Source: a bacterium
GTDB lineage: Bacteria > Babelota > Babeliae > Babelales > JAUWHS01
Length of the DNA stretch: 17,760 bases
Direction of reading: 5' to 3'
Assembly (NCBI GenBank): GCA_043818275.1
Contig: JBDRFY010000037.1
Location: 1-17,760, forward strand
Part shown: positions 342 through 17,033 of the stretch, in pieces
Position numbering within the stretch: the first letter of the stretch is position 1
Layout of the letters: every line of letters starts with the position of its first letter
Program-made: the position numbers and the translations under genes
The notes under the pieces: generated by a model
Told to the model about the DNA's origin: nothing
Seen by the model: only the letters and a program-made list of their open reading frames with translations
The model's database searches: none

Positions 342-1328
342 TTACAGAAACAAATTAATTAAAAGATAAAGAGTGATGACTGATGAAATTGCGCCCAAAA
401 TCATTTTAAAAGTAGTTTTTGGTTTGTTCATAAAAAAGTATACAGCAGCACTTAAAGCGACAAGAATGTAAAGACCTGAAATAATAAAAGGTGTGAAAAA
501 TGATTGCAGAAAATATACGCATACTGCCAGAAGAGCAAAACCAAATATTTTTTTAATTTCAATCATCCAGACACCAGCCTTTGGTGTAATTGCGGATGTT
601 GAAAATGTTCCAATTAAAATTAATAAAATTCCCATTCCTAAAGAAAATGAAAAAAGGGTAATTAAGCCTAAAAAAGGATTTGCCAATTTTGCGACAAAAC
701 CAAGAAGAAGTGCAAGCGCTGGGGTTAAACATGGAGATGCAACAGTTCCTGAAATAAGGCCAAAAACAAAGCTGTAAATAATAGATCCGTGTGGGCTTAC
801 AGTTTTTCCACTTTTTAAAAATTTTGGAATATAAATTTCATAAAAACCAAACATAGAAAAAGCAAAGTACAAAAATAATAAAATGAATAAAAATATTAAA
901 TATGGATTGGAAAGCCACTGACCAAACATCATTGTTGTTGTGGCGGCTAGATAACCAAGAACAGAATAAATTGTTGCTATTCCTAAAACATATGATGATG
1001 CTGTTAATAAGTTACGCCAGACAGAAGCAGAAGCTTGTGATTGCAATACTCCGATTGTTATTGGAATCATTGGATAAATGCAGGGCGTTAAACTTGCAAG
1101 AATTCCAGTGAGAAATGCAATTAAAAGAATCCAGATAAATGAGCTGTCCGTAGAAAGAGTATCCTTTAATGAAAACCAGGATGCCTTTTGAACTGTTGTT
1201 GTCTTTTTAACAGAGATTTCCTTTTGATTTTGGCTTTTTGTTATTTTTGCTGTGGTAATTTGATAGGATGCAAAACTGAGAGTTAGAAGGAAAAGTGTAA
1301 GAAAACTGAGTTTTTTTGTTTTTGTCAT
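342..1328 (-). CDS. DsbD/CcdA-family transmembrane thiol-disulfide electron transporter (DsbD-beta domain only)
   Basis: Two conserved Cys motifs, LASLTPCIYPMIP and VASPCLTPAL; many TM helices; PKAGVWM..IK..FGF motif typical of DsbD-beta. Signal-like N-terminus, but no Ig-like alpha domain and no C-terminal thioredoxin gamma domain. Confidence 0.9.
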   Translation of the reverse strand: MTKTKKLSFLTLFLLTLSFASYQITTAKITKSQNQKEISVKKTTTVQKASWFSLKDTLSTDSSFIWILLIAFLTGILASLTPCIYPMIPITIGVLQSQASASVWRNLLTASSYVLGIATIYSVLGYLAATTTMMFGQWLSNPYLIFLFILLFLYFAFSMFGFYEIYIPKFLKSGKTVSPHGSIIYSFVFGLISGTVASPCLTPALALLLGFVAKLANPFLGLITLFSFSLGMGILLILIGTFSTSAITPKAGVWMIEIKKIFGFALLAVCVYFLQSFFTPFIISGLYILVALSAAVYFFMNKPKTTFKMILGAISSVITLYLLINLFL

Positions 1329-1402: not shown

Positions 1403-1951
1403 ATGAAGAAAAAAAATATTGCAATCATTTTAGTTGGTTTTTTTGTGGTTAATTGTTCTGCGCTAATTTTGCAATGTGATGCTTTTAAAGATAAAGAAAA
1501 TATTCCTGTTCAATTTACTTGTGATGGGCAAAACATATCTCCACAACTTTCATGGTCAGATGTTCCAGATAAAACTAAAAGTTTTGCGATAATTTGTGAT
1601 GATCCGGATGCTCCGATGGATAGACCATTTGTTCATTGGGTAATTTTTAATATTCGGGGAAACGTTAATGAATTACCTGAAAATGTTATAGCTAAAAATT
1701 TTTTCACTAAAAAAAGCAAGAATGGTTCTTTGCGTTTAACAAAGCAAGGTACAAATGATTTTGGAAAAATTGGATATGGTGGTGCATGTCCTCCGAAAGG
1801 GGCTGGCAGTCACAGATATGTATTTACTCTTTATGCTTTGGATACAGTTTTAAATTTAAACGCGGGTATTAATAAAAGTGATCTTTTAAAAGCGATACAA
1901 AATCATATTTTAGCTGAAACAAAGCTGACAGGTCTTTTTGAACGCAAGTAA
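1403..1951 (+). CDS. YbhB/YbcL family PEBP (Raf kinase inhibitor-like) protein with signal peptide
   Basis: Motifs FTCDGQNISPQLSW, DDPDAP..FVHWV, GTNDFG..GYGGACPP, HRYVFTLYALD; RBS AGGAG upstream; positively charged/hydrophobic N-terminus. Confidence 0.93.
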   Translation: MKKKNIAIILVGFFVVNCSALILQCDAFKDKENIPVQFTCDGQNISPQLSWSDVPDKTKSFAIICDDPDAPMDRPFVHWVIFNIRGNVNELPENVIAKNFFTKKSKNGSLRLTKQGTNDFGKIGYGGACPPKGAGSHRYVFTLYALDTVLNLNAGINKSDLLKAIQNHILAETKLTGLFERK

Positions 1952-2358: not shown

Positions 2359-2416
2359 TTTGAGAATATGATAAAAATAATTTCCAGATTCATTTTTTTA
2401 TTTAGAGGATAACCCA

Positions 2417-3952
2417 ATGATTGTTAGGCGTTTTTATTTTCTTTTGATTTTGGCTTTTTTAGCCGGATGTCTAAATTTTTCAGATATTGGAACAAGAGTA
2501 TTTTCAGATTTTAATTTAGAACACGTTGAATGGAATAAAAATACTTATCCAGTTGTTATTCTTGGCGGCGGAATTGGAGGGTTAACTGCTGGAATATACA
2601 TGGCTCAGTCAAATATAAAAACATTAATTTTAGAAGGTGATAAACCTGGCGGAGCTCTTGCACAATCGCATTCAGTTAGAAATTGGCCCGGAAAAATTGA
2701 TGAATCTGGGGCCGAAATTATTGAAGAGATTAAAAATCATGCAATTAAAAGTGGGGCAAAAGTTGTTGCGCAAAAAGCTGTAAGCGTAAATTTTAATGTT
2801 TGGCCATATGAAATTGAAACTCAGGATATTGCAACGGGAAATACAGAAATAATAAAAGCTTTAACTTGTATTATTGCAATGGGAGCGACTCCTAATTATT
2901 TAAATGTTGAAGGAGAACAAAAATATTGGGGCAAAGGTGTAACTAATTGCGCAATTTGCGATGGAAGTCTTTATAAAGATAAAATAGTTGGTGTTGTTGG
3001 TGGTGGAGATGCTGCAATTGAAGAGGCCAGTTATTTATCTAGTTTAGCAAAAAAAGTTTATATTTTTGTACGTAGAGATGAATTTAGAGCAATGGGAAAA
3101 GTTAAAGATGAAGTTATTGCTAGATCAAATGTTGAAGTAATTTTTAATACAAAAATTTCTAAGATTGAGGGGAATAGTAAAAAGTTAACACATGTAATTT
3201 TGCATGATTCAAATACAGGTAATGAAAAAGAATTTAAATTGGATGGTTTATTCTTAGCAATTGGTTCAAAACCAAATTCTGAAATTTTAAAAGGCCAAAT
3301 TGATCTTGATTCAAAGGGTTACGTAAAACTTGTTGATGATCAGGAAACTTCAAAAAAGGGAATTTATTCAGTTGGTGATATTTCTGATCCAAAATATAAA
3401 CAAGCAATTTCTTCTGCGGGAGAAGGCTGTGTTGCAGCGTTGCAGGCGCAGGATTTTCTAACCGAAATTGGTTATGATCCGGCCAAACATGAGCCCCTTC
3501 GAGACGAAACCCTTCAGGTTTCTCCTCAGGATGATCGGGAAAAGCCTAAAAAGGAGAAGAAAGAAAAAACCGCAAAAAAAATTGAAAAGACAGTAAAAAA
3601 AGAAGTTATATCAAAAGACGTAATTGAGATAACAAGTGACGATCAATTTAAAAAAGAGGTTTTGCAAAGTGATGTTCCTGTTGTCGTTGATTTTTTTGCA
3701 ACTTGGTGTATGCCTTGCCAAATGATGACGCCAGTTATGAAAAAAGCAGCTAAGGATTTTGATGGAAGTGTTAAATTTGTAAAGGTAAATATTCAGGGTA
3801 AAGCTGGTTCACTTGCAAATAAATATGGCGTTCAAGGGGTTCCAACATTTGTGTTTATGGAAAAAGGCGAAGAGATTGATAGAATTGTCGGTGGAAGGCA
3901 AGAAGATCAGTTCGTAAAATCTATTAAAACAAGTTTTGGTATTGAAAAGTAG
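2417..3952 (+). CDS. trxB: Thioredoxin-disulfide reductase fused to a C-terminal thioredoxin (NTRC-like architecture), with N-terminal lipoprotein signal peptide
   Basis: FAD motif ILGGGIGGLTAG; CAIC redox centre (2948-2959); NADPH motifs VVGGGDAAIEEA and VRRDEFRA; TSKKGIYSVGD; Lys/Glu-rich linker; Trx domain VVVDFFATWCMPC (WCMPC 3704-3718) and GVPTF. RBS GAGGA at 2405-2409; lipobox LAGC at residues 15-18. Confidence 0.95.
   Translation: MIVRRFYFLLILAFLAGCLNFSDIGTRVFSDFNLEHVEWNKNTYPVVILGGGIGGLTAGIYMAQSNIKTLILEGDKPGGALAQSHSVRNWPGKIDESGAEIIEEIKNHAIKSGAKVVAQKAVSVNFNVWPYEIETQDIATGNTEIIKALTCIIAMGATPNYLNVEGEQKYWGKGVTNCAICDGSLYKDKIVGVVGGGDAAIEEASYLSSLAKKVYIFVRRDEFRAMGKVKDEVIARSNVEVIFNTKISKIEGNSKKLTHVILHDSNTGNEKEFKLDGLFLAIGSKPNSEILKGQIDLDSKGYVKLVDDQETSKKGIYSVGDISDPKYKQAISSAGEGCVAALQAQDFLTEIGYDPAKHEPLRDETLQVSPQDDREKPKKEKKEKTAKKIEKTVKKEVISKDVIEITSDDQFKKEVLQSDVPVVVDFFATWCMPCQMMTPVMKKAAKDFDGSVKFVKVNIQGKAGSLANKYGVQGVPTFVFMEKGEEIDRIVGGRQEDQFVKSIKTSFGIEK
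3495..3538 (+). repeat. REP-like palindromic unit inserted in-frame in the TrxB-Trx linker
   Basis: CCCTTCGA...CTCAGGATGATCGG ends match the intergenic units (CCCTTCGA at 2203-2210; 11/14 identity to CTCAGGGCGAGCGG at 2332-2345). Internal hairpin GAAACC-CTTCA-GGTTTC. Locally GC-rich. Confidence 0.65.
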
Positions 3953-3958
3953 AAAAGT

Positions 3959-3991
3959 AAAAGAGGCCCTAATTTAATTCCGGCCTCTTTT
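3959..3991. terminator. Bidirectional intrinsic terminator
   Basis: AAAAGAGGCC (3959-3968) / GGCCTCTTTT (3982-3991) inverted repeat between convergent genes. Confidence 0.8.
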
Positions 3992-4008
3992 GAATTGTTT
4001 TTAAATTT

Positions 4009-4740
4009 TTAGTTGTTTTTGGCTTGAAATAGATTATCAAAAAAACTGTTGTCGTAATAGAATTCAGGCTTTTTAATTAAATAGCGAACAGTAAAAAAAG
4101 TTTCTTTTTTATTAATTTCTGAAACGTTAACTTTAACTTGTTTTCGTTCTACATAACCTTGAACCATATTTGTAAATTGTTCGTTGTGATATGGATTACT
4201 AATAAATCCTAAATAATTTAAAGCATCAGCGCCCATTTGCGTTAAAGCTGATGCTGATGTTATAAAAAATGTTGTAATAAACATACACATGCTGATGTCA
4301 GATTGATCTAATGTTTGCGAAAGATAAAATAAAAATATTGATATCGGAATTCCTGCTAATATTGTTTGGTTAATAACCAAATTTAAATTTGCAAGTTTTG
4401 GATTCCAAAATAAAGCTGTTTCATGACCAAATTTAGATAATGTTGTAAGATAAGGATCCCTTAATACATTATAAACATTTTTGTCTTTGTTTGTAATTTG
4501 AATAATTGCAGGAAAAAACGTGTTATAAAATTTTTGAATTTTTTCTCGAGTTGATTCTTCTTTATAATTCCTGTCAAGATAAGTATTTTCAAAATCTCTA
4601 AGAGCATCAAGATCTTTTGGTATTGTGATTTTGTATGAGATGTTGTCTTTTTCAAATTCATAAACAAAATTTTCAGCGTTTAAATTCAAAGAAAAAATGC
4701 AAACTAAAAATACGAAAAAAAGACTTTTACTAAACTTCAT
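4009..4740 (-). CDS. Hypothetical exported/membrane protein
   Basis: 243-aa ORF with Sec signal (MKFSKSLFFVFLVCIFSLNLNA), two central hydrophobic segments and RBS GGAG upstream. No recognisable family. Confidence 0.8.
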   Translation of the reverse strand: MKFSKSLFFVFLVCIFSLNLNAENFVYEFEKDNISYKITIPKDLDALRDFENTYLDRNYKEESTREKIQKFYNTFFPAIIQITNKDKNVYNVLRDPYLTTLSKFGHETALFWNPKLANLNLVINQTILAGIPISIFLFYLSQTLDQSDISMCMFITTFFITSASALTQMGADALNYLGFISNPYHNEQFTNMVQGYVERKQVKVNVSEINKKETFFTVRYLIKKPEFYYDNSFFDNLFQAKNN

Positions 4741-4887: not shown

Positions 4888-6033
4888 TTATCCGACAATT
4901 ATTGCAGTTAAAATAGGACCAACTATTCCGGTGATAATTACCGGTACTGTCGATCCAGCTACAGCTAAAAATGCAAGAGTAATTTTTCCTGCAAGTTTTA
5001 ATTTGGGATTTAACCCAGCATATTCGTCTTCTTTTTCCAGTTGTTTTATTTGCATCATAAGTTTTAGCATTTCAAGTTGTTCTGATTGATTTTGATTTTG
5101 TGGATGTATTTTTCCCTGCAATAAATTCATTTGTTCAATAGTTAATTGTTCTTCAAGAGGTCTTGTTAAGTCTACTTTAATTACATTTTTATTTTCAACT
5201 TCTGAACCAGATTCATTTTCAAGATCGCCATTTGATGATTCGCATGAAGAAATGGATCCACAATCAATACTAGATATTGAATCTGTTTCGCTTGCATCAT
5301 CATCATCATCTAGTTCATGTATTCCTGCATAAAAACTTGAACTTGCAAATATTTGTGGCGGCGCAGGGGTTTGATAACCATTTATTTGATCGGAAATTAT
5401 ATCTTCAAGGAAATATCCAAAATTTGGATTAGCTTCTGCTTTTTGTGATATTTTCTTTTTTAATTTATAAAGCGCGCCCACTAAAACATGCGCGCCTTTT
5501 CCATAACTGATCAAAGATATTTTTTCCTTTTGATTTTTGGCTTTTATTTCTAATTCTGTTTTATCAATATTGTTTTCAGATTCTTGTTGTTTTTCGTTTT
5601 CTTCAGTTACTGTTTTTTCTTTGTCAGGATAATCTTTTTTATTTACAATAAAATCGTTATTTTGTGATACCTCGGCGGAAGTTTCTTGAGTGGTTTTGAT
5701 TTCATTTTCTTTTTTGATTTGTATTTCATTTATTGATCTGCTATTTATTTGAATGAAATCATTTACAATTTTTGTTGCTAGTTCATCCGCAAGTTTGTCC
5801 AGATCGCCAACATATGTTGCATATATATTTCGCTCACTTTCAATATTTATTTTTGGAAAAATTTTAAAATTTCTTTTTCCAATTCTTTTTTTTAATCGTT
5901 GATAGGTTTTTTTTAGATCAGAATGCCAGTCGTCTGCTCCTCCTGGACCAACCACAAAGATTGTATGAGCTGTTGTTGAATTAATTTGAAAAATTAAAAA
6001 AAGAACAAGAAATATTTTAATATAAATTTTCAT
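4888..6033 (-). CDS. Hypothetical exported protein; degenerate alpha/beta-hydrolase (DUF676/lipase-like) fold, acidic Ser-rich region, hydrophobic C-terminal tail
   Basis: Signal peptide; HTIFVVGPGG, DLDKLADELATKI and KISLISYGKGAHVL echo the hydrolase strand/elbow motifs; DDDDD/Ser-rich tract; ~30-aa hydrophobic C-terminus. The ORF is solid; the fold call is tentative. Confidence 0.7.
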   Translation of the reverse strand: MKIYIKIFLVLFLIFQINSTTAHTIFVVGPGGADDWHSDLKKTYQRLKKRIGKRNFKIFPKINIESERNIYATYVGDLDKLADELATKIVNDFIQINSRSINEIQIKKENEIKTTQETSAEVSQNNDFIVNKKDYPDKEKTVTEENEKQQESENNIDKTELEIKAKNQKEKISLISYGKGAHVLVGALYKLKKKISQKAEANPNFGYFLEDIISDQINGYQTPAPPQIFASSSFYAGIHELDDDDDASETDSISSIDCGSISSCESSNGDLENESGSEVENKNVIKVDLTRPLEEQLTIEQMNLLQGKIHPQNQNQSEQLEMLKLMMQIKQLEKEDEYAGLNPKLKLAGKITLAFLAVAGSTVPVIITGIVGPILTAIIVG

Positions 6034-6065: not shown

Positions 6066-6884
6066 TTATTCTTCATTAATTAATTCGATAATTTTTTCAA
6101 CAACTTTTATTGCTAAACTTTGATTATAAGTTCTTTGGAATCTTAGTTTCAATTTATTCCAACCCTTTATATCGTTTTTTATTTCAGAGATATTTATTGG
6201 AGTAACATGTTTTGAATTTATAAATTTTTCTGTTTCATCAGAAACTTTAATTGTTGGAGAGCTTGGACTTGTTTGAAGTATTTCTTCTGAATCACGACCT
6301 AAAAGATTTAAAGAATCTAACGCATCATCAAGATTTTTTTCTTCTGAAAAAACAGTTTCTGTATTTTTAGGGGGTTGTAAATAAATTATTTTTAATAAAT
6401 ATTTGTTTATCTGAGATAGTTTGTTTTTATTTTTTAATTCTTCAATAGTTTTCCGTATAACATTTTCTGCATTGCCAAAAATTATTAAATAAAAAAACTT
6501 TTTTGTTGTAACTATTTTATTTATTTCCTTGTACAAAAGATTCCAATGATTATCTCCTGCAGGAAAAGCAGTAGCTCTGGTGTCGCTTCTTGATCTTGTT
6601 TGTTGTTCTGGTTCTTCATAAATTTGTGAAAAATTGTCATAAGAAATATCAGCAGTCATCTCATTTGTTGTTTCCAGTTTCATTGGATAAGATATATTCT
6701 CTTCTCCAATAAAAATAAATTTTTTTAATTGTTCATATATTTTCAAGTTTAAAGCATGCATACTGTCATTTTTGATTTTTCCTTCGACATAAATTATGTG
6801 ATAATCGGCATTTAAAGAATTAATAGCTGCGAAAAACAAAAGAAAAACAAAAGATTTGAATAAAATAGATCGATTTTTTTTCAT
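6066..6884 (-). CDS. Hypothetical exported protein, probable divergent paralog of 4888-6033
   Basis: Signal peptide ending INSLNA; shared motifs HIIYVEG...H...KIYEQLKK and LIIFG...LK.K..SQ...LLKII; purine-rich RBS upstream. Confidence 0.75.
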   Translation of the reverse strand: MKKNRSILFKSFVFLLFFAAINSLNADYHIIYVEGKIKNDSMHALNLKIYEQLKKFIFIGEENISYPMKLETTNEMTADISYDNFSQIYEEPEQQTRSRSDTRATAFPAGDNHWNLLYKEINKIVTTKKFFYLIIFGNAENVIRKTIEELKNKNKLSQINKYLLKIIYLQPPKNTETVFSEEKNLDDALDSLNLLGRDSEEILQTSPSSPTIKVSDETEKFINSKHVTPINISEIKNDIKGWNKLKLRFQRTYNQSLAIKVVEKIIELINEE

Positions 6885-11655: not shown

Positions 11656-12985
11656 ATGTTAAAAAAAATAGTCACACTTTTATGGGGTGATTTAAATAAT
11701 CAGGAAATAAAAAAATTTTCATTACTTGCGCTTGGTTTTTTTATAATTATTGGTTCTTATTGGCCGCTTAAAGCGTTAAAAGATGGAATTTTTATTAATC
11801 TTGTTGGCGCAAAATATCTACCAGATGTTAAAGTTTTATCTTTACTTACGTATTTTCCGTTAATTATTTTTTATTCAAAAATTGTTGATTATTTTTCTAA
11901 AGAAAAAATTTTATATATTTTTATTTTTTCATTTGGGACCTTAGGTCTTTTATTAACTTATTTATTAATTCATCCATCAATTGGATTGTCTAATATTTCT
12001 TGTGGCCCACACAGATTAATAGGTTGGATATTTTATATATTTGTTGAGAGTTATATTAATTTTATTGTTTCTATTTATTGGGCTTTTATAAATGATGTAA
12101 CAACTCCTGAATCAGCAAAAAAAAGGTTATGGAATGATTGCTTTTGGTACTCAGCTTGGTGGAGTAACGTTTACTTTTTTGGGACATTTTTTATCCAGGG
12201 ATCCAAATTTATATTCATCCAGGGCACCATTAATTGCTTTTATTTCGGTAGTAACTTTTTTTGGTTTGGCTTTAGTTATTTGGTCGTTAAAACATTTTGT
12301 TTCTAATGAAGAATTGAAAGGTTATCAAAGTAAAAATGAAGACATTAAAGAAAAAATAAGAGTTGGCTTTCTGGATGGTTTTAAAGTAATTATTTCCCGT
12401 CCTTACGTTGCAGGTATTTTTGCAATTATTTTTATTTATGAGGCTGTGACCACAATTCTTAATTTTCAAATGTATTCTTTGGCAAAGAAAACATTTATTG
12501 ATCCGGGACAACTTAATAAATTTATTTTTGATTATGCTTTAATGGTTCAGGCTTTAGCTTGTATAATTGCTTTATTTGGTACGTCATTTTTTCAAAGAAA
12601 ATTTGGTATAAAATTTTGTTTGATTGCTTATCCGGCAATTTTAGGTTTGGCGATTATTTTTTATACAATTTACCCAACTTTAAATGTTGTTTTATTTGCT
12701 GTCATTTTATCAAAAGCTTTGAATTATAGTTTTAATCAACCAACAAAAGAGTCTTTATATATACCAACAAGTAAGGAAATAAAATATAAATCAAAGGCAT
12801 GGATAGATGTTTTTGGCGCAAGAGTTGCTAAAACATTTGGATCAGGATTTTATAAAGCGGCAGGTTCTTTGGTTGGTTTTACTTCTATGGTTACCTTGGG
12901 GATGATTGCTTTGTGGATTATTTTATCAGATAAAGTTGGCAAAAAATTTCATAAAATTGTTTCAAAAAACGAATTAATTCATTAA
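11656..12985 (+). pseudogene. Nucleotide transporter (NTT/Tlc, ATP:ADP antiporter family) paralog 1, split by a +1 frameshift
   Basis: ORFs 11656-12306 and 12134-12985 are the N- and C-terminal parts of one NTT. Deleting one A from the A8 run at 12117-12124 gives a continuous 442-aa protein reading AKKGYGMIAF, matching AKKGYGMMAF in paralog 3. May be a sequencing error rather than a true pseudogene. Confidence 0.85.
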
Positions 12986-13168: not shown

Positions 13169-14485
13169 ATGGCGTTTTTTAGTAAGGTTACAAAAACTTT
13201 ATGGGGCGATTTATCAAGGGATGAGTATAAAAAATTTGGTCTTTTAGCTTTAACCTTTTTATTTATTATTGGAACGTATTGGTTGATGAGACCATTAAAA
13301 GATAGCCTTTTCGGGTCTATTGTGGGAATTGAGTGGCAACCAAGAGCAAAAATGTTGTCTTTTTTATGTATTATTCCATTAATTATGATCTACTCAAAAC
13401 TGGTAGATTTATTTGATAAGCAAAAATTGTTTTATTTTGTAACAATTTTTTATTCAGCATTCTTTTTAATTATAGCTTTTCTGTTAATGCATCCTGCAAT
13501 TGGTCTAGGTAACCCGATTGCAAGTCCAAAAAGAATTTTGGGTTGGGTTATTTATGTTTCAATTGAAAGTTTTGGTTCATTAGTAGTAGCTCTTTTTTGG
13601 TCTTACGTTGCAAGTACAACGGAGGCTGCTTCAGCAAAAAGAGGTTATGCATTAATTATTTCAGGCGCGCAATTTGGATCAATTATGGGGCCAACATTGG
13701 GTAGTTTTGCAACAACAATTGGAACAGCGCCATTGATGTTTGTTGTCAGTTTAGGAATTTTAATTTCACCATTGATGATTAAATTATTTACCACAATAAT
13801 TCCGGAAAATTTAAGAACAACCCATTATGCGCAAATAAAATCAGCAGCAACTGGCCCATTGGAAGGTATTAAATTACTTTTAACCCGTCCATATTTGTTA
13901 GGAATTTTTGGTGTTGCAACATTATATGAAGTTGTTGGAACAATTATGGATTATCAGATGAAAGTTTTAGCGTTCAAACAATATTTAACTCCTGACAGCA
14001 GAACAGCATTTCTTTCTTTATTTGGTCAATCTGCAAATACATTAGCTTTAGTTTTTGCATTAATTGGCACAAGTTATTTTATGAGAAAATTTGGATTAAC
14101 TTTTTGTCTGGTTATGTTTCCTGTAACAGTTGGTTTGGTTGTCACTTATGTTTATATTAATCCGGTTTTGTGGGTTGTATTTGGCGCAATGATTGCTGTT
14201 AAAGGTTTGAGTTACGCTTTGAATAATCCATCTAAAGAAGTTATGTATATTCCAACAAGCAAAGATATCAAATTTAAAGCAAAAAGTTGGATTGATGCTT
14301 TTGGTGGAAGATCTGCCAAGGCTACAGGTTCAGCTGTAACTGATTTTTTCAGAGGAGCTCCGGCATCCTTGATGTTTTATGGAACTTTGATTTCTTTGGG
14401 AATTGTCGGATTGTGGATTTTTGTTGCGTTTGCAGTTGGAAATGCGTTTAATAAATTGCAAAAAGAAGATAAAGTTGTTTCATAG
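13169..14485 (+). CDS. Nucleotide transporter (NTT/Tlc family) paralog 2
   Basis: EYKKF, YWLMRPLKD, LFW...AKRGY and YALNNPSKEVMYIPTS.DIKFKAKSWID.FGGRSAK motifs of the TLC/AAA family; ~12 hydrophobic segments. Confidence 0.92.
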   Translation: MAFFSKVTKTLWGDLSRDEYKKFGLLALTFLFIIGTYWLMRPLKDSLFGSIVGIEWQPRAKMLSFLCIIPLIMIYSKLVDLFDKQKLFYFVTIFYSAFFLIIAFLLMHPAIGLGNPIASPKRILGWVIYVSIESFGSLVVALFWSYVASTTEAASAKRGYALIISGAQFGSIMGPTLGSFATTIGTAPLMFVVSLGILISPLMIKLFTTIIPENLRTTHYAQIKSAATGPLEGIKLLLTRPYLLGIFGVATLYEVVGTIMDYQMKVLAFKQYLTPDSRTAFLSLFGQSANTLALVFALIGTSYFMRKFGLTFCLVMFPVTVGLVVTYVYINPVLWVVFGAMIAVKGLSYALNNPSKEVMYIPTSKDIKFKAKSWIDAFGGRSAKATGSAVTDFFRGAPASLMFYGTLISLGIVGLWIFVAFAVGNAFNKLQKEDKVVS

Positions 14486-14776: not shown

Positions 14777-15673
14777 ATGAAGGACATAAAATATCTAATT
14801 TTTGTATTGATATTTATTTTCAGGACAGTTTTATCTCAGGGTTCTGTTATTTTTTTAACTGGAACTTCAAGTTCAGGAAAAACATCTATTTTAAATGAAT
14901 TTAAAAGGATGGCTGTTGATTATGAATGTTTATCATGTGATGAATTTGTTCATGAAGCTTTTTTAAAGCTAGCAAGCGTTTGCCTTGGTTGTAAAGAAAA
15001 TTTTGAAAATATTAATAAAAAATTAAATGAAATTGAGAATGGTCAAAACATCAGAAGTGATTTGGAATGTTTGGCGGAAGTTCAGGGATTTGATAATTTT
15101 GTAATTAAAATTTTAGAATTAGTTGATCAGGATAAAAGAGTTGTTTGCGAAACAGTTTTACCCAGTCAAAAAGAACAATTAACTTTTTTATTTAATTCTT
15201 TATTAGATATAAGAACTTTTTTTGTTTTAGTTTATTGTCCTTTGGATTGTTTTAAAGAATTTGTTGAATCAAGAAATAAAAGGGCCTTAGAGGGAAAAAG
15301 TTTTGATGAAACGTTTGGTTGGCGGGATTTAAATGATGTTGTCGCGCAATTTTGTGAATATTATAAAATATTTGATAAAGAATGTGAAAAATATAAATCA
15401 TGCATAGGTGATATTGAGTTAAGTAAAGTTGAAAATTTTAATTTAATTTTAAAACCGAAAATATATAAATCTTTTTGCGAATATTTTAAATTGAAGAATT
15501 ATATGGATTGTTACGGTATAATTCCGGTTTTATGTTATGACTTAATTATAAATATTAAAGGAAAAACTTCCTTGCAATGTGCCATGGAAGTTTTATCTTC
15601 AAGTGGTTATGAAAATTTTGCCGTAAGAATGAATTGGTTGAATTTTAATTGTCCAAATATTTTTAATCAATAG
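14777..15673 (+). CDS. Chloramphenicol phosphotransferase (CPT)-like P-loop small-molecule kinase with N-terminal signal-like segment
   Basis: VIFLTGTSSSGKTS Walker A, FVLVYCPL...ESRNKR lid region and YDLIINI...TSLQCA C-terminal motif, all resembling the CPT family. Start placed at ATG 14777 after GGGGGTGG. Overlaps the NTT3 3' end by 11 nt. Confidence 0.75.
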   Translation: MKDIKYLIFVLIFIFRTVLSQGSVIFLTGTSSSGKTSILNEFKRMAVDYECLSCDEFVHEAFLKLASVCLGCKENFENINKKLNEIENGQNIRSDLECLAEVQGFDNFVIKILELVDQDKRVVCETVLPSQKEQLTFLFNSLLDIRTFFVLVYCPLDCFKEFVESRNKRALEGKSFDETFGWRDLNDVVAQFCEYYKIFDKECEKYKSCIGDIELSKVENFNLILKPKIYKSFCEYFKLKNYMDCYGIIPVLCYDLIINIKGKTSLQCAMEVLSSSGYENFAVRMNWLNFNCPNIFNQ

Positions 15674-17033
15674 TTTCGTTTTCATCATTTAATTTTTGAA
15701 ATTTATTTCCTGTAATTGCAGCGGTTACTGTCCAGACTCCAACAATACCGAGTGAAATTATACTTCCATAAAATAATAAATTTGGCAGAGAATGTTTGAA
15801 TGTATTTGACACTGCGGCCCCTATTCCTTTGGTGGATCTGCTTCCAAAAGTATCAATCCAGCCTTTGGATTTAAATTTTATATCATTGCTTGTTGGAATA
15901 TATAAAACTTCCATTGAGGGTTTGTTGAATGCGTAATTTAACCCTTTAATTGCAACAACGGATCCAAGCATTAACCACATTAATTGATAACTTGATATAT
16001 CAAAATGTCTCGTTAACAAAATTCCCGAAACAATAAAACCAATCAAAATTGGAAAAGACATAATACAAAATTTAAGACCAAATCTTCGCATAAAAAAACT
16101 TGTTCCAATTAAAGCAAAAAGTAAGGCAACCGTGTTTATTCCGATTGCCTGATAAGCTGTAAATGTAGCAAATTTTGCAGGAGTTAAATAAATTCCTGTT
16201 GCAATCCAATTCATTTGATATTCAAGAATTGTACTTATTGCTTCATAACCAGTTGCGACAACAAATATTCCAATAACATATGGTCTTGTTATTAAAATTT
16301 TTAACCCTTCAAAAAAGCCGGTTTTTAATTTTAATTTTTCTTTTTTTAATTGTTTGGGGGTTGGTTTTTCTGTTGGAATAACTTTTAGATAAAACATTAT
16401 TATGAATGGAACTAGTAAAATAATAATACTTCCAAAGGTGTATAATTTTGAAATACCAACAACTTGAGCATATTCCATTGTTATAAATGATCCTGTTATG
16501 GTTCCTATTTGAATTATAAACGCCATCATACCATAACCTTTTTTGGCCGATTCAGTTGTCATAACACTTGCAACAAAGGAATAAAAAATTGCAACGACTA
16601 ATGAACCATAACTTTCTAATAAAACGTAAGAAATCCAACCGATAGCTTTACCTGGGATCCATGAAACAAAAGGAAAAAGAAACGAATCAGTATTTAAAGA
16701 ACCAAATCCTGGATGAGCAATAATGTGTCCAACCAGAAAAAATGAAAAGCCATAAAGAATACAGAAAAAATATAGCAGATGTTGTTTTTTCATTAGGTCA
16801 ACAAGTTTGCTGTAAGCTAATACGATAAAGATCATTGCGACTAAAGAAAAGATTTTTGCAATTGGTTGCCATTCACGAAAACCAACGAACATATCAAAAA
16901 CAGCATTTTTTGTTGTTCGAAGCATCCAGTAGTTACCCAAAATGAGCATTATTGCAGTGGAAAGAATACCAAATTTTTTTAATTCTTCGTTGCTTAGATC
17001 ACCCCATAACGCTCTTAGTGGCTTGGGCAACAT
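15663..17033 (-). CDS. Nucleotide transporter (NTT/Tlc family) paralog 3
   Basis: LWGDLS.EELKKF, YWMLRTTKN, AKKGY and YAFNKPSMEVLYIPTS.DIKFKSKGWID.FGSR motifs; RBS AAGGAG on the minus strand at 17039-17044. Confidence 0.92.
   Translation of the reverse strand: MLPKPLRALWGDLSNEELKKFGILSTAIMLILGNYWMLRTTKNAVFDMFVGFREWQPIAKIFSLVAMIFIVLAYSKLVDLMKKQHLLYFFCILYGFSFFLVGHIIAHPGFGSLNTDSFLFPFVSWIPGKAIGWISYVLLESYGSLVVAIFYSFVASVMTTESAKKGYGMMAFIIQIGTITGSFITMEYAQVVGISKLYTFGSIIILLVPFIIMFYLKVIPTEKPTPKQLKKEKLKLKTGFFEGLKILITRPYVIGIFVVATGYEAISTILEYQMNWIATGIYLTPAKFATFTAYQAIGINTVALLFALIGTSFFMRRFGLKFCIMSFPILIGFIVSGILLTRHFDISSYQLMWLMLGSVVAIKGLNYAFNKPSMEVLYIPTSNDIKFKSKGWIDTFGSRSTKGIGAAVSNTFKHSLPNLLFYGSIISLGIVGVWTVTAAITGNKFQKLNDENETID

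Follow-up and report, generated by a model that had tools for sequence, protein, structure and literature searches.

Our analysis of a 17,760-nucleotide stretch of DNA (the window) points to a lipid-anchored, NADPH-type thioredoxin reductase-thioredoxin fusion that would operate outside the cytoplasm, likely with host NADPH, and would reduce disulfides that belong to the envelope or face the host; on the sequence evidence, we place the probability of this reading at about 0.55. The source bacterium is host-dependent and Dependentiae-like. The gene is an ORF at positions 2417-3952, and its 511-aa product, with the N-terminus MIVRRFYFLLILAFLAGC, joins a thioredoxin to an intact thioredoxin reductase of the low-Mr type. 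The features of the gene and its surroundings are as follows.

342..1328, minus strand: DsbD_TM/CcdA-like membrane thiol-disulfide transporter, TM domain only (PF02683, 1.7e-47)
1403..1951, plus strand: PEBP/YbhB-YbcL family protein, hydrophobic signal at its N-terminus (PF01161, 6.8e-47)
2405..2409, plus strand: Shine-Dalgarno-like GAGGA, 7 nt 5' of ATG 2417, read from the sequence
2417..2470, plus strand: putative Sec/SPII-type lipoprotein signal peptide, MIVRRFYFLLILAFLAG, with lipobox Cys18 (codon 2468-2470), from the translation and the lipobox rule
2471..2548, plus strand: tether, then a family-specific conserved stretch, F-D/N-L..V.F/W-D..TYP, ahead of the FAD domain (alignment)
2549..3466, plus strand: low-Mr thioredoxin reductase domain (Pfam, NCBIfam, PDB sequence matches, Foldseek, motif columns)
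2564-2581 and 2948-2959, plus strand, within the reductase domain: FAD motif GxGxxG and redox-active CAIC
2999-3016 and 3071-3088, plus strand, within the reductase domain: NADPH Rossmann motif GGGDAA and 2'-phosphate-type RRDEFR
3467..3613, plus strand: Lys/Glu-rich flexible interdomain linker (low pLDDT; length varies in the alignment)
3614..3952, plus strand: thioredoxin domain with WCMPC at 3704-3718 and the stop codon at 3950-3952 (PF00085, TIGR01068, invariant columns)
3958..3992, plus strand: terminator-like hairpin, an 11-bp stem and, after it, a U-rich tail (RNA fold)

As read from the sequence, no start codon lies between an in-frame TAA at 2378-2380 and ATG 2417, and the GAGGA ahead of it agrees with the ribosome-binding site named in the original prediction. 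The same prediction had held that no in-frame Met precedes the FAD motif, and the first downstream Met is indeed Met62, which sits behind that motif (G50-G55). Between codon 1 and Met62, ATG, GTG or TTG occurs solely as the TTG codons 10 and 12, both within the hydrophobic core, so that an intact enzyme free of the signal could not arise from a standard downstream start. An alternative start was therefore ruled out, there being no standard start codon between the signal and the FAD motif.

Pyr_redox_2 (PF07992, 1.9e-44) spans residues 45-337 of the product, and Thioredoxin (PF00085, 2.6e-28) spans residues 404-504. The redox and NADPH-binding motifs that had been claimed are all present in the translation, with CAIC at residues 178-181, GGGDAA at 195-200, VRRDEFRA at 218-225 and WCMPC at 430-434. 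The protein has the FAD-binding GxGxxG and the two-Rossmann fold of the pyridine nucleotide-disulfide oxidoreductases, and GGGDAA and VRRDEFRA correspond to the GGGxxA and HRRxxxR-type motifs of a putative NADPH site, the arginines of HRRxxxR being those that we take to bind the 2'-phosphate of NADPH. C178, A179 and C181 were invariant in an alignment of 40 sequences, as were the thioredoxin columns D425, C431, C434 and P476 (the cis-Pro). The match to the TrxB model TIGR01292 (2.5e-93) scored 312.2 bits, below the equivalog cut-off of 343.45, and the reductase part is, by these scores, a divergent TrxB member that falls short of NCBIfam 'equivalog' status; the thioredoxin part scored 99.8 bits against TIGR01068, above the cut-off of 96.8. 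The AF2 model of the fusion protein (pLDDT 87.9) aligned with 4up3 in a Foldseek search (TMt 0.91, rmsd 2.0). It contains a helix at residues 2-18, corresponding to the signal, a segment with pLDDT below 50 at residues 22-29, a segment near 90 at residues 31-40, and values below 50 in the linker at residues 366-371 and 380-399. Among the 120 listed homologues the thioredoxin active site read WCGPC in 44, WCMPC in 20 and WCIPC in 14, and a reducing CxPC-type motif is found in nearly all members of the family.

The closest architectural parallel among the systems compared is NTRC of plastids and cyanobacteria, in which a low-Mr thioredoxin reductase, a flexible linker and a thioredoxin follow in the same order on one chain. 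Chlamydomonas NTRC (7p9d/7p9e) gave the best full-length match to a solved structure (4.8e-68, residues 46-497 against 4-458), the reductase folds match, and the electron path from NADPH through FAD and CxxC to the thioredoxin CxxC would be alike. In contrast with the fusion, which has a conserved lipoprotein signal, NTRC resides in a compartment that makes NADPH and carries no bacterial export signal, and the family studied here adds both the signal peptide and the conserved N-terminal stretch. The client of NTRC is a 2-Cys peroxiredoxin; in the 94%-complete source genome the sole AhpC-TSA match was the thioredoxin domain of the fusion itself. With the TrxB/TrxA pair (Escherichia coli 1tde/1f6m; Mycobacterium smegmatis 5uth), the fusion has in common the FAD and NADPH motifs, the CxxC and the fold, and its thioredoxin part retains the columns for the buried Asp, the CxxC and the cis-Pro, but TrxB and TrxA are separate proteins, whereas the fusion joins both behind a lipoprotein signal. 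The source genome also encodes an ordinary signal-less TrxB (5.9e-77 to 5uth), in which the HRRxxxR arginines have been lost. The TrxB-TrxA hybrid of Mycobacterium leprae is a bacterial fusion with the same domain order, but it is a cytoplasmic protein not known to carry an export signal.

By sequence criteria, the export signal of the fusion is real, and the family to which it belongs is made up of Dependentiae and Chlamydiota proteins. The N-terminus proposed in the original prediction was recovered as described, with R4 and R5 in a basic n-region, a hydrophobic core from F6 to L15, and Cys18 closing an L-A-G-C lipobox. Of the 1265 ORFs in the genome with 100 aa or more, a PROSITE-style lipobox rule (basic n-region, hydrophobic core and [LVI][ASTVI][GAS]C in the first 15-35 residues) picked out only 26, the fusion among them; envelope proteins of the FKBP, S41 protease, OmpA/Pal-like and Trx-like kinds are among the other hits that were checked. 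An N-terminal hydrophobic, export-type segment was found in 113 of the 120 listed homologues, 62 of which also have a lipobox, and the remaining 7 look like truncated gene calls. A search of the phylum gave a lipobox in 28 of 29 loci, and of 80 named loci, 24 carry a lipobox and another 53 show a hydrophobic signal that lacks the Cys, most of the latter being from Chlamydiota, where the signals look cleavable; Dependentiae have the lipobox. The uncharged stretch of the segment has a median of 18 residues, and in 99 of the 113 homologues the N-terminal flank was more positive than the C-terminal one, with no difference in 11 and the opposite bias in 3. Some members of the family have uncleaved-looking anchors whose orientation is ambiguous from the flanking charges. 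No such extension was found in the short TrxB paralogues (0/21 in Dependentiae, 0/12 in chlamydial genomes). Its conservation among family members makes the signal more than a chance resemblance. The family also holds together by other measures: its internal matches (1e-120 to 1e-173) are much closer than those to NTRC, and in a quick tree a branch supported at 100 separated the reductase domains of fusions from both phyla from the short TrxBs.

The machinery for lipidation is present in the genome, with profile matches to Lgt (1.7e-51) and LspA (2.0e-28), while LolA was not found in the source genome by a search whose control was weak (5/14 genomes positive). The proposal of a lipid-anchored protein outside the cytoplasm has gained support on sequence evidence: the export-type extension and lipobox recur in orthologues, the flanking charges favour an N-in/C-out orientation, lgt and lspA are both present, and a second, signal-less trxB lies on another contig. 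The suggestion that RRFYF might be a twin-arginine motif did not hold up, as the S/T-R-R-x-F-L-K pattern is not conserved, most relatives having K, N or a single R at the RR of the fusion. Moreover, a search for TatC gave no match in the source genome, and in none of the phylum's 201 genomes did a match reach the family cut-off (control positive in 11/14); Tat export was ruled out on these grounds. Without Tat, the flavoprotein must fold and acquire its FAD following Sec export, which weighs against our reading.

In the mechanism that we propose, the fusion would be exported unfolded by Sec, lipidated at Cys18, and folded with FAD outside the cytoplasm. Electrons would then pass from NADPH to FAD, to CAIC, to the WCMPC of the tethered thioredoxin and on to client disulfides, in the manner of NTRC. 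Against this reading, a search of the genome for the customary thioredoxin clients found neither MsrA nor MsrB, and AhpC-TSA matched the fusion alone. FAD synthetase was not found in the genome, and FAD_syn exceeded the cut-off in only 2 of the 201 genomes, most of its matches being to 485-530-aa frames that belong to another protein; the flavin would accordingly be supplied by the host and cross the periplasm.

The NADPH for the exported fusion would likewise be of host origin, because NAD kinase was not found in the phylum and because the TrxB and G6PD of Dependentiae have lost the 2'-phosphate arginines that the fusion keeps. A profile search for NAD kinase was negative in all 201 Dependentiae genomes (control positive in 14/14), and the enzyme was found in all 12 chlamydial genomes that hold the fusion. 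In the short TrxB of Dependentiae, H[IL]xDKLTA-type sequences replace HRRxxxR (21/21), in contrast with the chlamydial short TrxB, where HRRDxLRA is kept (12/12). The fusion has R219 in 109/109 loci and R or K at position 224 in 101/109. The beta2 arginine of G6PD is missing from all 8 sampled Dependentiae copies and present in 12 of 14 chlamydial loci. Each motif loss in the cytoplasmic enzymes probably happened once, in an ancestor, so that the phyla differ by about one event against one, rather than 21 against 12. This pattern of NADP-type arginines, taken with the missing NAD kinase, fits the use of host-derived NADPH outside the cytoplasm, and strengthens the original idea of a host donor, while leaving it short of proof. 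The missing NAD kinase shows that NADP(H) originates from the host, not in which compartment it is used. MurB is present in the source genome and G6PD_C in 144 of the 201 genomes of the phylum (signal-less in 8/8), and given these, imported NADP(H) may be present in the cytoplasm. We consider it quite improbable that the cytoplasm of Dependentiae is free of NADP, its TrxB and G6PD having been re-tooled away from NADP(H), and that the single NADPH-specific redox enzyme stands outside the cytoplasmic membrane, tapping host NADPH directly. On that reading, lineages whose only thioredoxin reductase seems to be the fusion may even send its reducing power inward by way of DsbD running in reverse. 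Our preferred reading of an exported, lipid-anchored reductase assumes that NADPH, a 745-Da nucleotide, passes the outer membrane, and we know of no precedent for NADPH in a periplasm.

To our knowledge, pyridine nucleotides have no place in the textbook bacterial envelope, which obtains reducing power solely through DsbD/CcdA, and the earlier statement that this is the usual route holds here as well, given that a DsbD_TM gene lies 1.1 kb from the fusion gene and is transcribed away from it. The fusion would therefore add to the DsbD route rather than replace a missing one. The two share a presumed purpose, the provision of reducing power for the envelope, but DsbD draws on cytoplasmic NAD(P)H and moves the electrons through the membrane, whereas the fusion would oxidise pyridine nucleotide outside with no such transfer. 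The DsbD_TM product matches the central part of the DsbD model (137-431 of 574), DsbD_TM was found in 182 of the 201 genomes, and the proteins of the source clade are TM-only with frames of 270-390 aa, compared with about 600 aa in most of the phylum. The DsbD_TM gene is possibly a functional neighbour of the fusion. The PEBP gene stands between the two and was found beside the fusion in 0 of 109 related loci. Beyond the closest relatives, Dependentiae fusions have SHMT beside them at 13 loci, an unknown protein of 157 aa at 12 and a HIT protein at 8, none of which is a redox partner, and a conserved operon redox partner was rejected; chlamydial loci carry sulfatase-family genes (49 loci).

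Whether the exported enzyme draws its electrons from NADPH at all can be questioned, as the thioredoxin might be reduced by DsbD_TM, or the flavin domain might serve as an electron sink. The available part of one report describes the phylum as having no electron transport chain (PMC4776705), in which case the quinone-dependent DsbB route would fail, and DsbB was not found in the source genome by a search whose control was positive in only 6 of 14 genomes. In the sink version, electrons would run from thiols to the thioredoxin, CAIC, FAD and finally O2 or NADP+, a QSOX-like formation of disulfides in an envelope without DsbB. The TM-only DsbD of this clade would need a separate periplasmic thioredoxin partner, and its gene adjoins the fusion not only here but in 8/29 and 6/80 related loci; this adjacency is, however, limited to the closest relatives of the source genome. 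The nearly universal reducing motif of the thioredoxin, and the family-wide conservation of 2'-phosphate-type basic residues and GGGDAA, which is puzzling if no pyridine nucleotide is used, make a donor other than NADPH unlikely in our view.

The location of the enzyme may also be read in other ways. That the N-terminus is a mere membrane tether, with catalysis in the cytoplasm at the expense of imported NADPH and electrons passed into DsbD_TM, strikes us as very unlikely, since a lipobox Cys that ends the hydrophobic core is a signature of SPII export and not of an N-out anchor, the cleavable-looking SPI signals of the chlamydial orthologues would free the protein outside, and the flanking charges favour N-in/C-out in 99 of 113 homologues. 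The source genome, in addition, has its own signal-less TrxB and TrxA, presumably for the cytoplasm. A tether would nonetheless agree with the fact that all characterised thioredoxin reductases and NTRC, as far as we know, operate where NADPH is produced, with the adjacent DsbD_TM gene, with the possible cytoplasmic use of NADP(H) suggested by MurB and G6PD, and with the long, uncleaved-looking anchors of a few members. It would also suit genomes in which the fusion is apparently the only thioredoxin reductase at E<=1e-20 (e.g., G040 and G031). Alternatively, an enzyme exposed at the surface or released, acting on host or vacuolar proteins with host NADPH, would share the export evidence and have its donor directly available, and the failure to find bacterial clients in the source genome (peroxiredoxin, MsrA and MsrB) is in keeping with it, as is the view, from the available part of the Babela paper, that many signal-bearing proteins of one cultured Dependentiae are secreted into the amoeba (PMC4378268). 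A lipid anchor, however, favours retention at the membrane, and we regard a position beyond the periplasm as quite unlikely.

If the preferred reading of a lipid-anchored, NADPH-type reductase is true, the fusion would be the first flavin- and NADPH-driven disulfide reductase outside the cytoplasm, shared by two phyla of obligate intracellular bacteria, and would represent a new form of host exploitation in which the host's reducing currency is used without import. For chlamydia-like organisms, where it is an open question what reduces the disulfide-cross-linked proteins of the envelope once the cell has entered its host, the fusion is a candidate. A phylum in which NAD kinase is missing, and in which TrxB and G6PD lack the NADP-type arginines, makes a testable claim on the cofactor economy of reduced genomes, and should the cytoplasm prove to be NADP-free, the fusion would amount to an extracytoplasmic, host-powered thioredoxin system. 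Our search of the literature on exported, secreted, extracytoplasmic, membrane-anchored, lipoprotein or periplasmic thioredoxin reductases found no description of the family, a search combining thioredoxin reductase, lipoprotein signal and periplasm gave nothing on topic among the papers listed, by their titles and abstract openings, and a search on NAD kinase in Dependentiae found no report. In the available parts of two papers, a thioredoxin reductase gene is merely stated to be present (PMC4776705), and solely an expansion of thioredoxin reductases is mentioned for Babela (PMC4378268).

Two minor observations concern the DNA itself. A resemblance of the linker-encoding DNA (3420-3560) to a GC-rich repeat upstream was dismissed as chance (score of 24, when shuffled sequences averaged 18 and reached up to 28). 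The hairpin just downstream of the stop codon, which a pattern scan for terminators omitted because its loop is longer than the limit of the scan, has a predicted energy of -14.9 kcal/mol (z -3.76), and 0 of 200 shuffles were equally stable.

The fusion gene is carried by a genome of 1.33 Mb (92 contigs, 30.8% G+C, estimated completeness 94%), of which the window is contig C37. The closest named relatives of its product come from MAGs with Candidatus Babeliales or Dependentiae in their titles; Chlamydiales and Anoxychlamydiales come next. The organism is therefore probably one of the Dependentiae. The ORF and its domains are as follows:

2417-3952, + strand: fusion ORF, 511 aa on translation
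Fusion residues 45-337: Pyr_redox_2 domain (Pfam, 1.9e-44)
Fusion residues 404-504: Thioredoxin domain (Pfam, 2.6e-28)

Against NCBIfam models, the protein matched TrxB (TIGR01292; 2.5e-93, 312.2 bits) under the equivalog cut-off of 343.45, and thioredoxin (TIGR01068) above its cut-off (99.8 versus 96.8 bits). Chlamydomonas NTRC (7p9d) was the top full-length match among solved structures (4.8e-68, fusion residues 46-497), and a Foldseek search with a confident AlphaFold model (40 homologues as input; pLDDT 87.9, pTM 0.79) ranked low-Mr thioredoxin reductases highest, 4up3 among them (TMt 0.91). In this model residues 2-18 form a helix, and residues 22-29 and the linker at 366-399 are disordered. 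Among low-Mr thioredoxin reductases the fusion is divergent, and it also bears an export signal; it would work like NTRC, but two features of NTRC, its compartment and its client, fail to apply.

Downstream of an in-frame TAA ending at 2380, the first start codon is ATG 2417, preceded by GAGGA at 2405-2409, in agreement with the good ribosome-binding site proposed in the original prediction. Between codon 1 and Met62 there is no further ATG, GTG or TTG codon apart from two TTG within the hydrophobic core, indicating that no ordinary initiation gives an intact enzyme lacking the N-terminal segment and bearing out the claim that no in-frame Met lies between ATG 2417 and the FAD motif. The N-terminus, MIVRRFYFLLILAFLAGC, indeed displays the basic n-region and L-A-G-C lipobox that had been described, on either side of an uncharged core; the lipobox Cys is residue 18. 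Of the 1265 ORFs in this genome that are 100 aa or longer, 26 satisfied a PROSITE-style lipobox rule. Pfam scans of five of the other hits gave a sensible set of envelope proteins, among them an FKBP isomerase, an S41/PDZ protease, an OmpA/Pal-like protein and one that is thioredoxin-like. Both LspA and Lgt are encoded in the genome.

Orthologues upheld the expectation of a conserved export-type segment. A hydrophobic N-terminal segment was observed before the FAD motif in 113 of the 120 best listed homologues (query counted), with a lipobox in 62 of these (56 strict, 6 relaxed) and no Cys in the other 51. The seven homologues without the segment look like truncated gene calls; P0070, for instance, begins at a Met inside an ORF whose full signal is visible at two loci (L016 and L045). 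Stop-to-stop reading of the DNA showed a lipobox in 28 of the 29 phylum-search loci; the 80 named loci comprised 24 with a lipobox, 53 with a hydrophobic signal lacking Cys and 3 below thresholds, one of them misparsed. The Cys-less loci are mostly from Chlamydiota and have short, cleavable-looking signals (e.g., L096 and L103). Across the 113 proteins, the uncharged stretch had a median length of 18 residues, and the N-flank was the more positive of the two flanks in 99; the charges were equal in 11 and the bias reversed in 3. No N-terminal extension was present in the short, signal-less TrxB paralogues (0/21 from Dependentiae, 0/12 from Chlamydiota). A quick maximum-likelihood tree of 88 TrxR domains (55 fusions hand-picked from 109 loci, plus 21 Dependentiae and 12 chlamydial short copies) separated the fusions, those of both phyla together, from the short copies by a branch with support 100; as this tree has no outgroup, it does not show in which direction a transfer went. 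We consider it very probable that the fusion protein is exported.

Export by Tat, which the original prediction had raised on the basis of the RR pair, was rejected, as the pair is not conserved in relatives and TatC was not found in the fusion's genome or, above the family cut-off, in any of 201 Dependentiae genomes (control found in 11 of 14 genomes). One sub-threshold TatC fragment, interrupted by stop codons, was observed among the 201. The fusion would thus be exported via Sec, with folding and FAD uptake taking place outside the cytoplasm. FAD synthetase exceeded its cut-off in just 2 of the 201 genomes, and most of its matches fall in frames of 485-530 aa that belong to a different protein, so that flavin cofactors probably come from the host, in which case they must cross the periplasm.

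The genome also encodes a cytoplasmic-type counterpart of the kind that the original prediction proposed to look for:

C34 (another contig of this genome), 5316-4357, - strand: second TrxB, signal-less

Given this copy and a signal-less thioredoxin with WCGPC on a further contig, C78, the exported fusion is an extra system. NAD kinase (PF01513) was found neither in this genome nor in any of the 201 Dependentiae genomes, 177 of them of high quality (control found in 14/14), whereas the same search detected it in all 12 chlamydial genomes with a fusion. We read this as Dependentiae being unable to make NADP. In short TrxB from Dependentiae (this genome's copy plus 20, L114-L133, hand-picked from about 45 listed short-frame rows), an H[IL]xDKLTA-type sequence replaces the HRRxxxR of TrxR in 21/21, with GGGDTA kept in all, whereas the chlamydial short TrxB has HRRDxLRA in 12/12. 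In the fusion, R219 is kept in 109/109 loci, position 220 is mostly K, R or G, and position 224 is R or K in 101 of the 109. G6PD was not found in the fusion's genome and is present in 144 of the 201; eight sampled Dependentiae copies (L163-L170) all lack a signal peptide and the arginine after beta-strand 2, reading IGAS, IGVS or VGAA, then I/F/L/N and D/K/S. Of the 14 chlamydial G6PD loci (L171-L184), 12, corresponding to 10 of 12 genomes, have a VGFARR-type sequence, the exceptions being L181 (genome G210) and L182 (genome G211). We take these TrxR and G6PD arginines to bind the 2'-phosphate of NADP(H). Judging from these motifs, the NADP-type cytoplasmic enzymes of Dependentiae appear to have moved away from NADP, and the enzyme with a recognizable NADPH signature is the one with the predicted export signal. 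The lack of NAD kinase and of the G6PD arginine together suggests that the Dependentiae cytoplasm is NAD-only, and NADH may be the electron donor of the short TrxB.

The claim that the fusion runs on host NADPH is therefore supported by the missing NAD kinase and by the arginines that the fusion keeps but the short TrxB and G6PD of Dependentiae lack. The cytoplasm may nevertheless contain NADP(H), because the fusion's genome encodes MurB, an NADPH-dependent enzyme in model bacteria, and G6PD may use imported NADP+. Each arginine-motif loss is probably a single ancestral event, and the contrast between the phyla thus sets roughly one event in each against the other. Passage of NADPH through the outer membrane is assumed, by analogy with the nucleotide transporters of these organisms only, and three TLC-like genes lie in the window:

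11656-12985: TLC/MFS-like transporter paralogue, in two overlapping ORFs (11656-12306 and 12134-12985)
13169-14485: TLC/MFS-like transporter paralogue
15663-17033: TLC/MFS-like transporter paralogue

These paralogues are of ~440-456 aa with weak PF03219 matches, and the split of the first suggests a frameshift or assembly error.

On balance, we slightly favor the full reading of an exported, NADPH-driven reductase supplied with host-derived NADPH (probability roughly 0.55). An exported fusion with another electron logic we regard as unlikely given the NADPH signature kept in the fusion. Even less probable is that the N-terminal segment is a tether facing the cytoplasm. To put a domain outside the membrane, a lipobox, a cleavable signal and a signal anchor are interchangeable, but a cleavable signal, of the kind that Chlamydiota seem to have, would not substitute for such a tether. 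Among exported readings, surface exposure or release toward the host is doubtful; it overlaps the full reading of a host-NADPH-driven reductase and adds no probability of its own.

Another gene for a redox protein lies near the fusion:

342-1328, - strand: DsbD_TM-only gene, directed away from the fusion gene

An exported PEBP-family gene separates the two. DsbD_TM adjoins the fusion in 8 of 29 phylum-search loci (1.5-kb flanks) and 6 of 80 named loci (6-kb flanks), two of the latter six ~1.5 kb downstream and not divergent, indicating that the link is confined to the nearest relatives. Among the 201 Dependentiae genomes, 182 have DsbD_TM, mostly in frames of ~600 aa that presumably carry periplasmic domains; in the window's clade (families f1 and f11-f13) the frames are of 270-390 aa and hold the TM domain only. 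Further recurrent neighbours are non-redox genes. In 49 of the chlamydial loci (within L039-L112), the fusion is flanked by one or two genes for ~626-aa membrane proteins of the sulfatase family (PF00884). Searches of the fusion's genome found no peroxiredoxin, MsrA, MsrB or DsbB, and our guess for the client is envelope or host-facing disulfides. At E<=1e-20, TrxR is matched in all 201 Dependentiae genomes, and at least 100 have a match of fusion type, where the open frame spans >=470 codons (a hand count of 150 listed rows, with 358 further rows, and hence a lower bound); among the matches listed, some genomes (G040, G031) have a single TrxR match, of fusion type.

In the literature we found no account of a thioredoxin reductase that is exported, periplasmic or a lipoprotein, and none of Dependentiae without NAD kinase. 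In sections of the TM6 (PMC4776705) and Babela (PMC4378268) papers, thioredoxin reductases are merely noted as present or expanded.

Several other features were also observed. Between 2056 and 2358, within the AT-rich spacer that precedes the fusion gene, a GC-rich element of ~30-40 nt occurs three times in alternating orientation:

2056-2097, 2201-2232 and 2331-2358: GC-rich element arms (28-nt arms 100% complementary, 32-nt arms 91%)

With at least 16 occurrences of its core on 10 contigs of the genome, the element looks like a dispersed REP/MITE-like palindromic repeat, and an 88-aa ORF across it (2050-2316, - strand) is probably spurious. Close to the contig end, at 104-167, lies a GC-rich inverted repeat whose 25-nt arms match perfectly around a 14-nt loop. 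The core of the REP/MITE-like element also occurs at C34:1433, just upstream of a gene 3 kb from the short trxB:

C34, 1263-859, - strand: lipoprotein-signal thioredoxin-like protein (PF00085, 3.4e-20), with single-Cys CAAS replacing CxxC

Three further genes in the window encode signal-peptide proteins without a credible Pfam family:

4009-4740, - strand: signal-peptide protein
4888-6033, - strand: signal-peptide protein
6066-6884, - strand: signal-peptide protein

All three are possible secreted or envelope proteins, and two of them have acidic or low-complexity regions.
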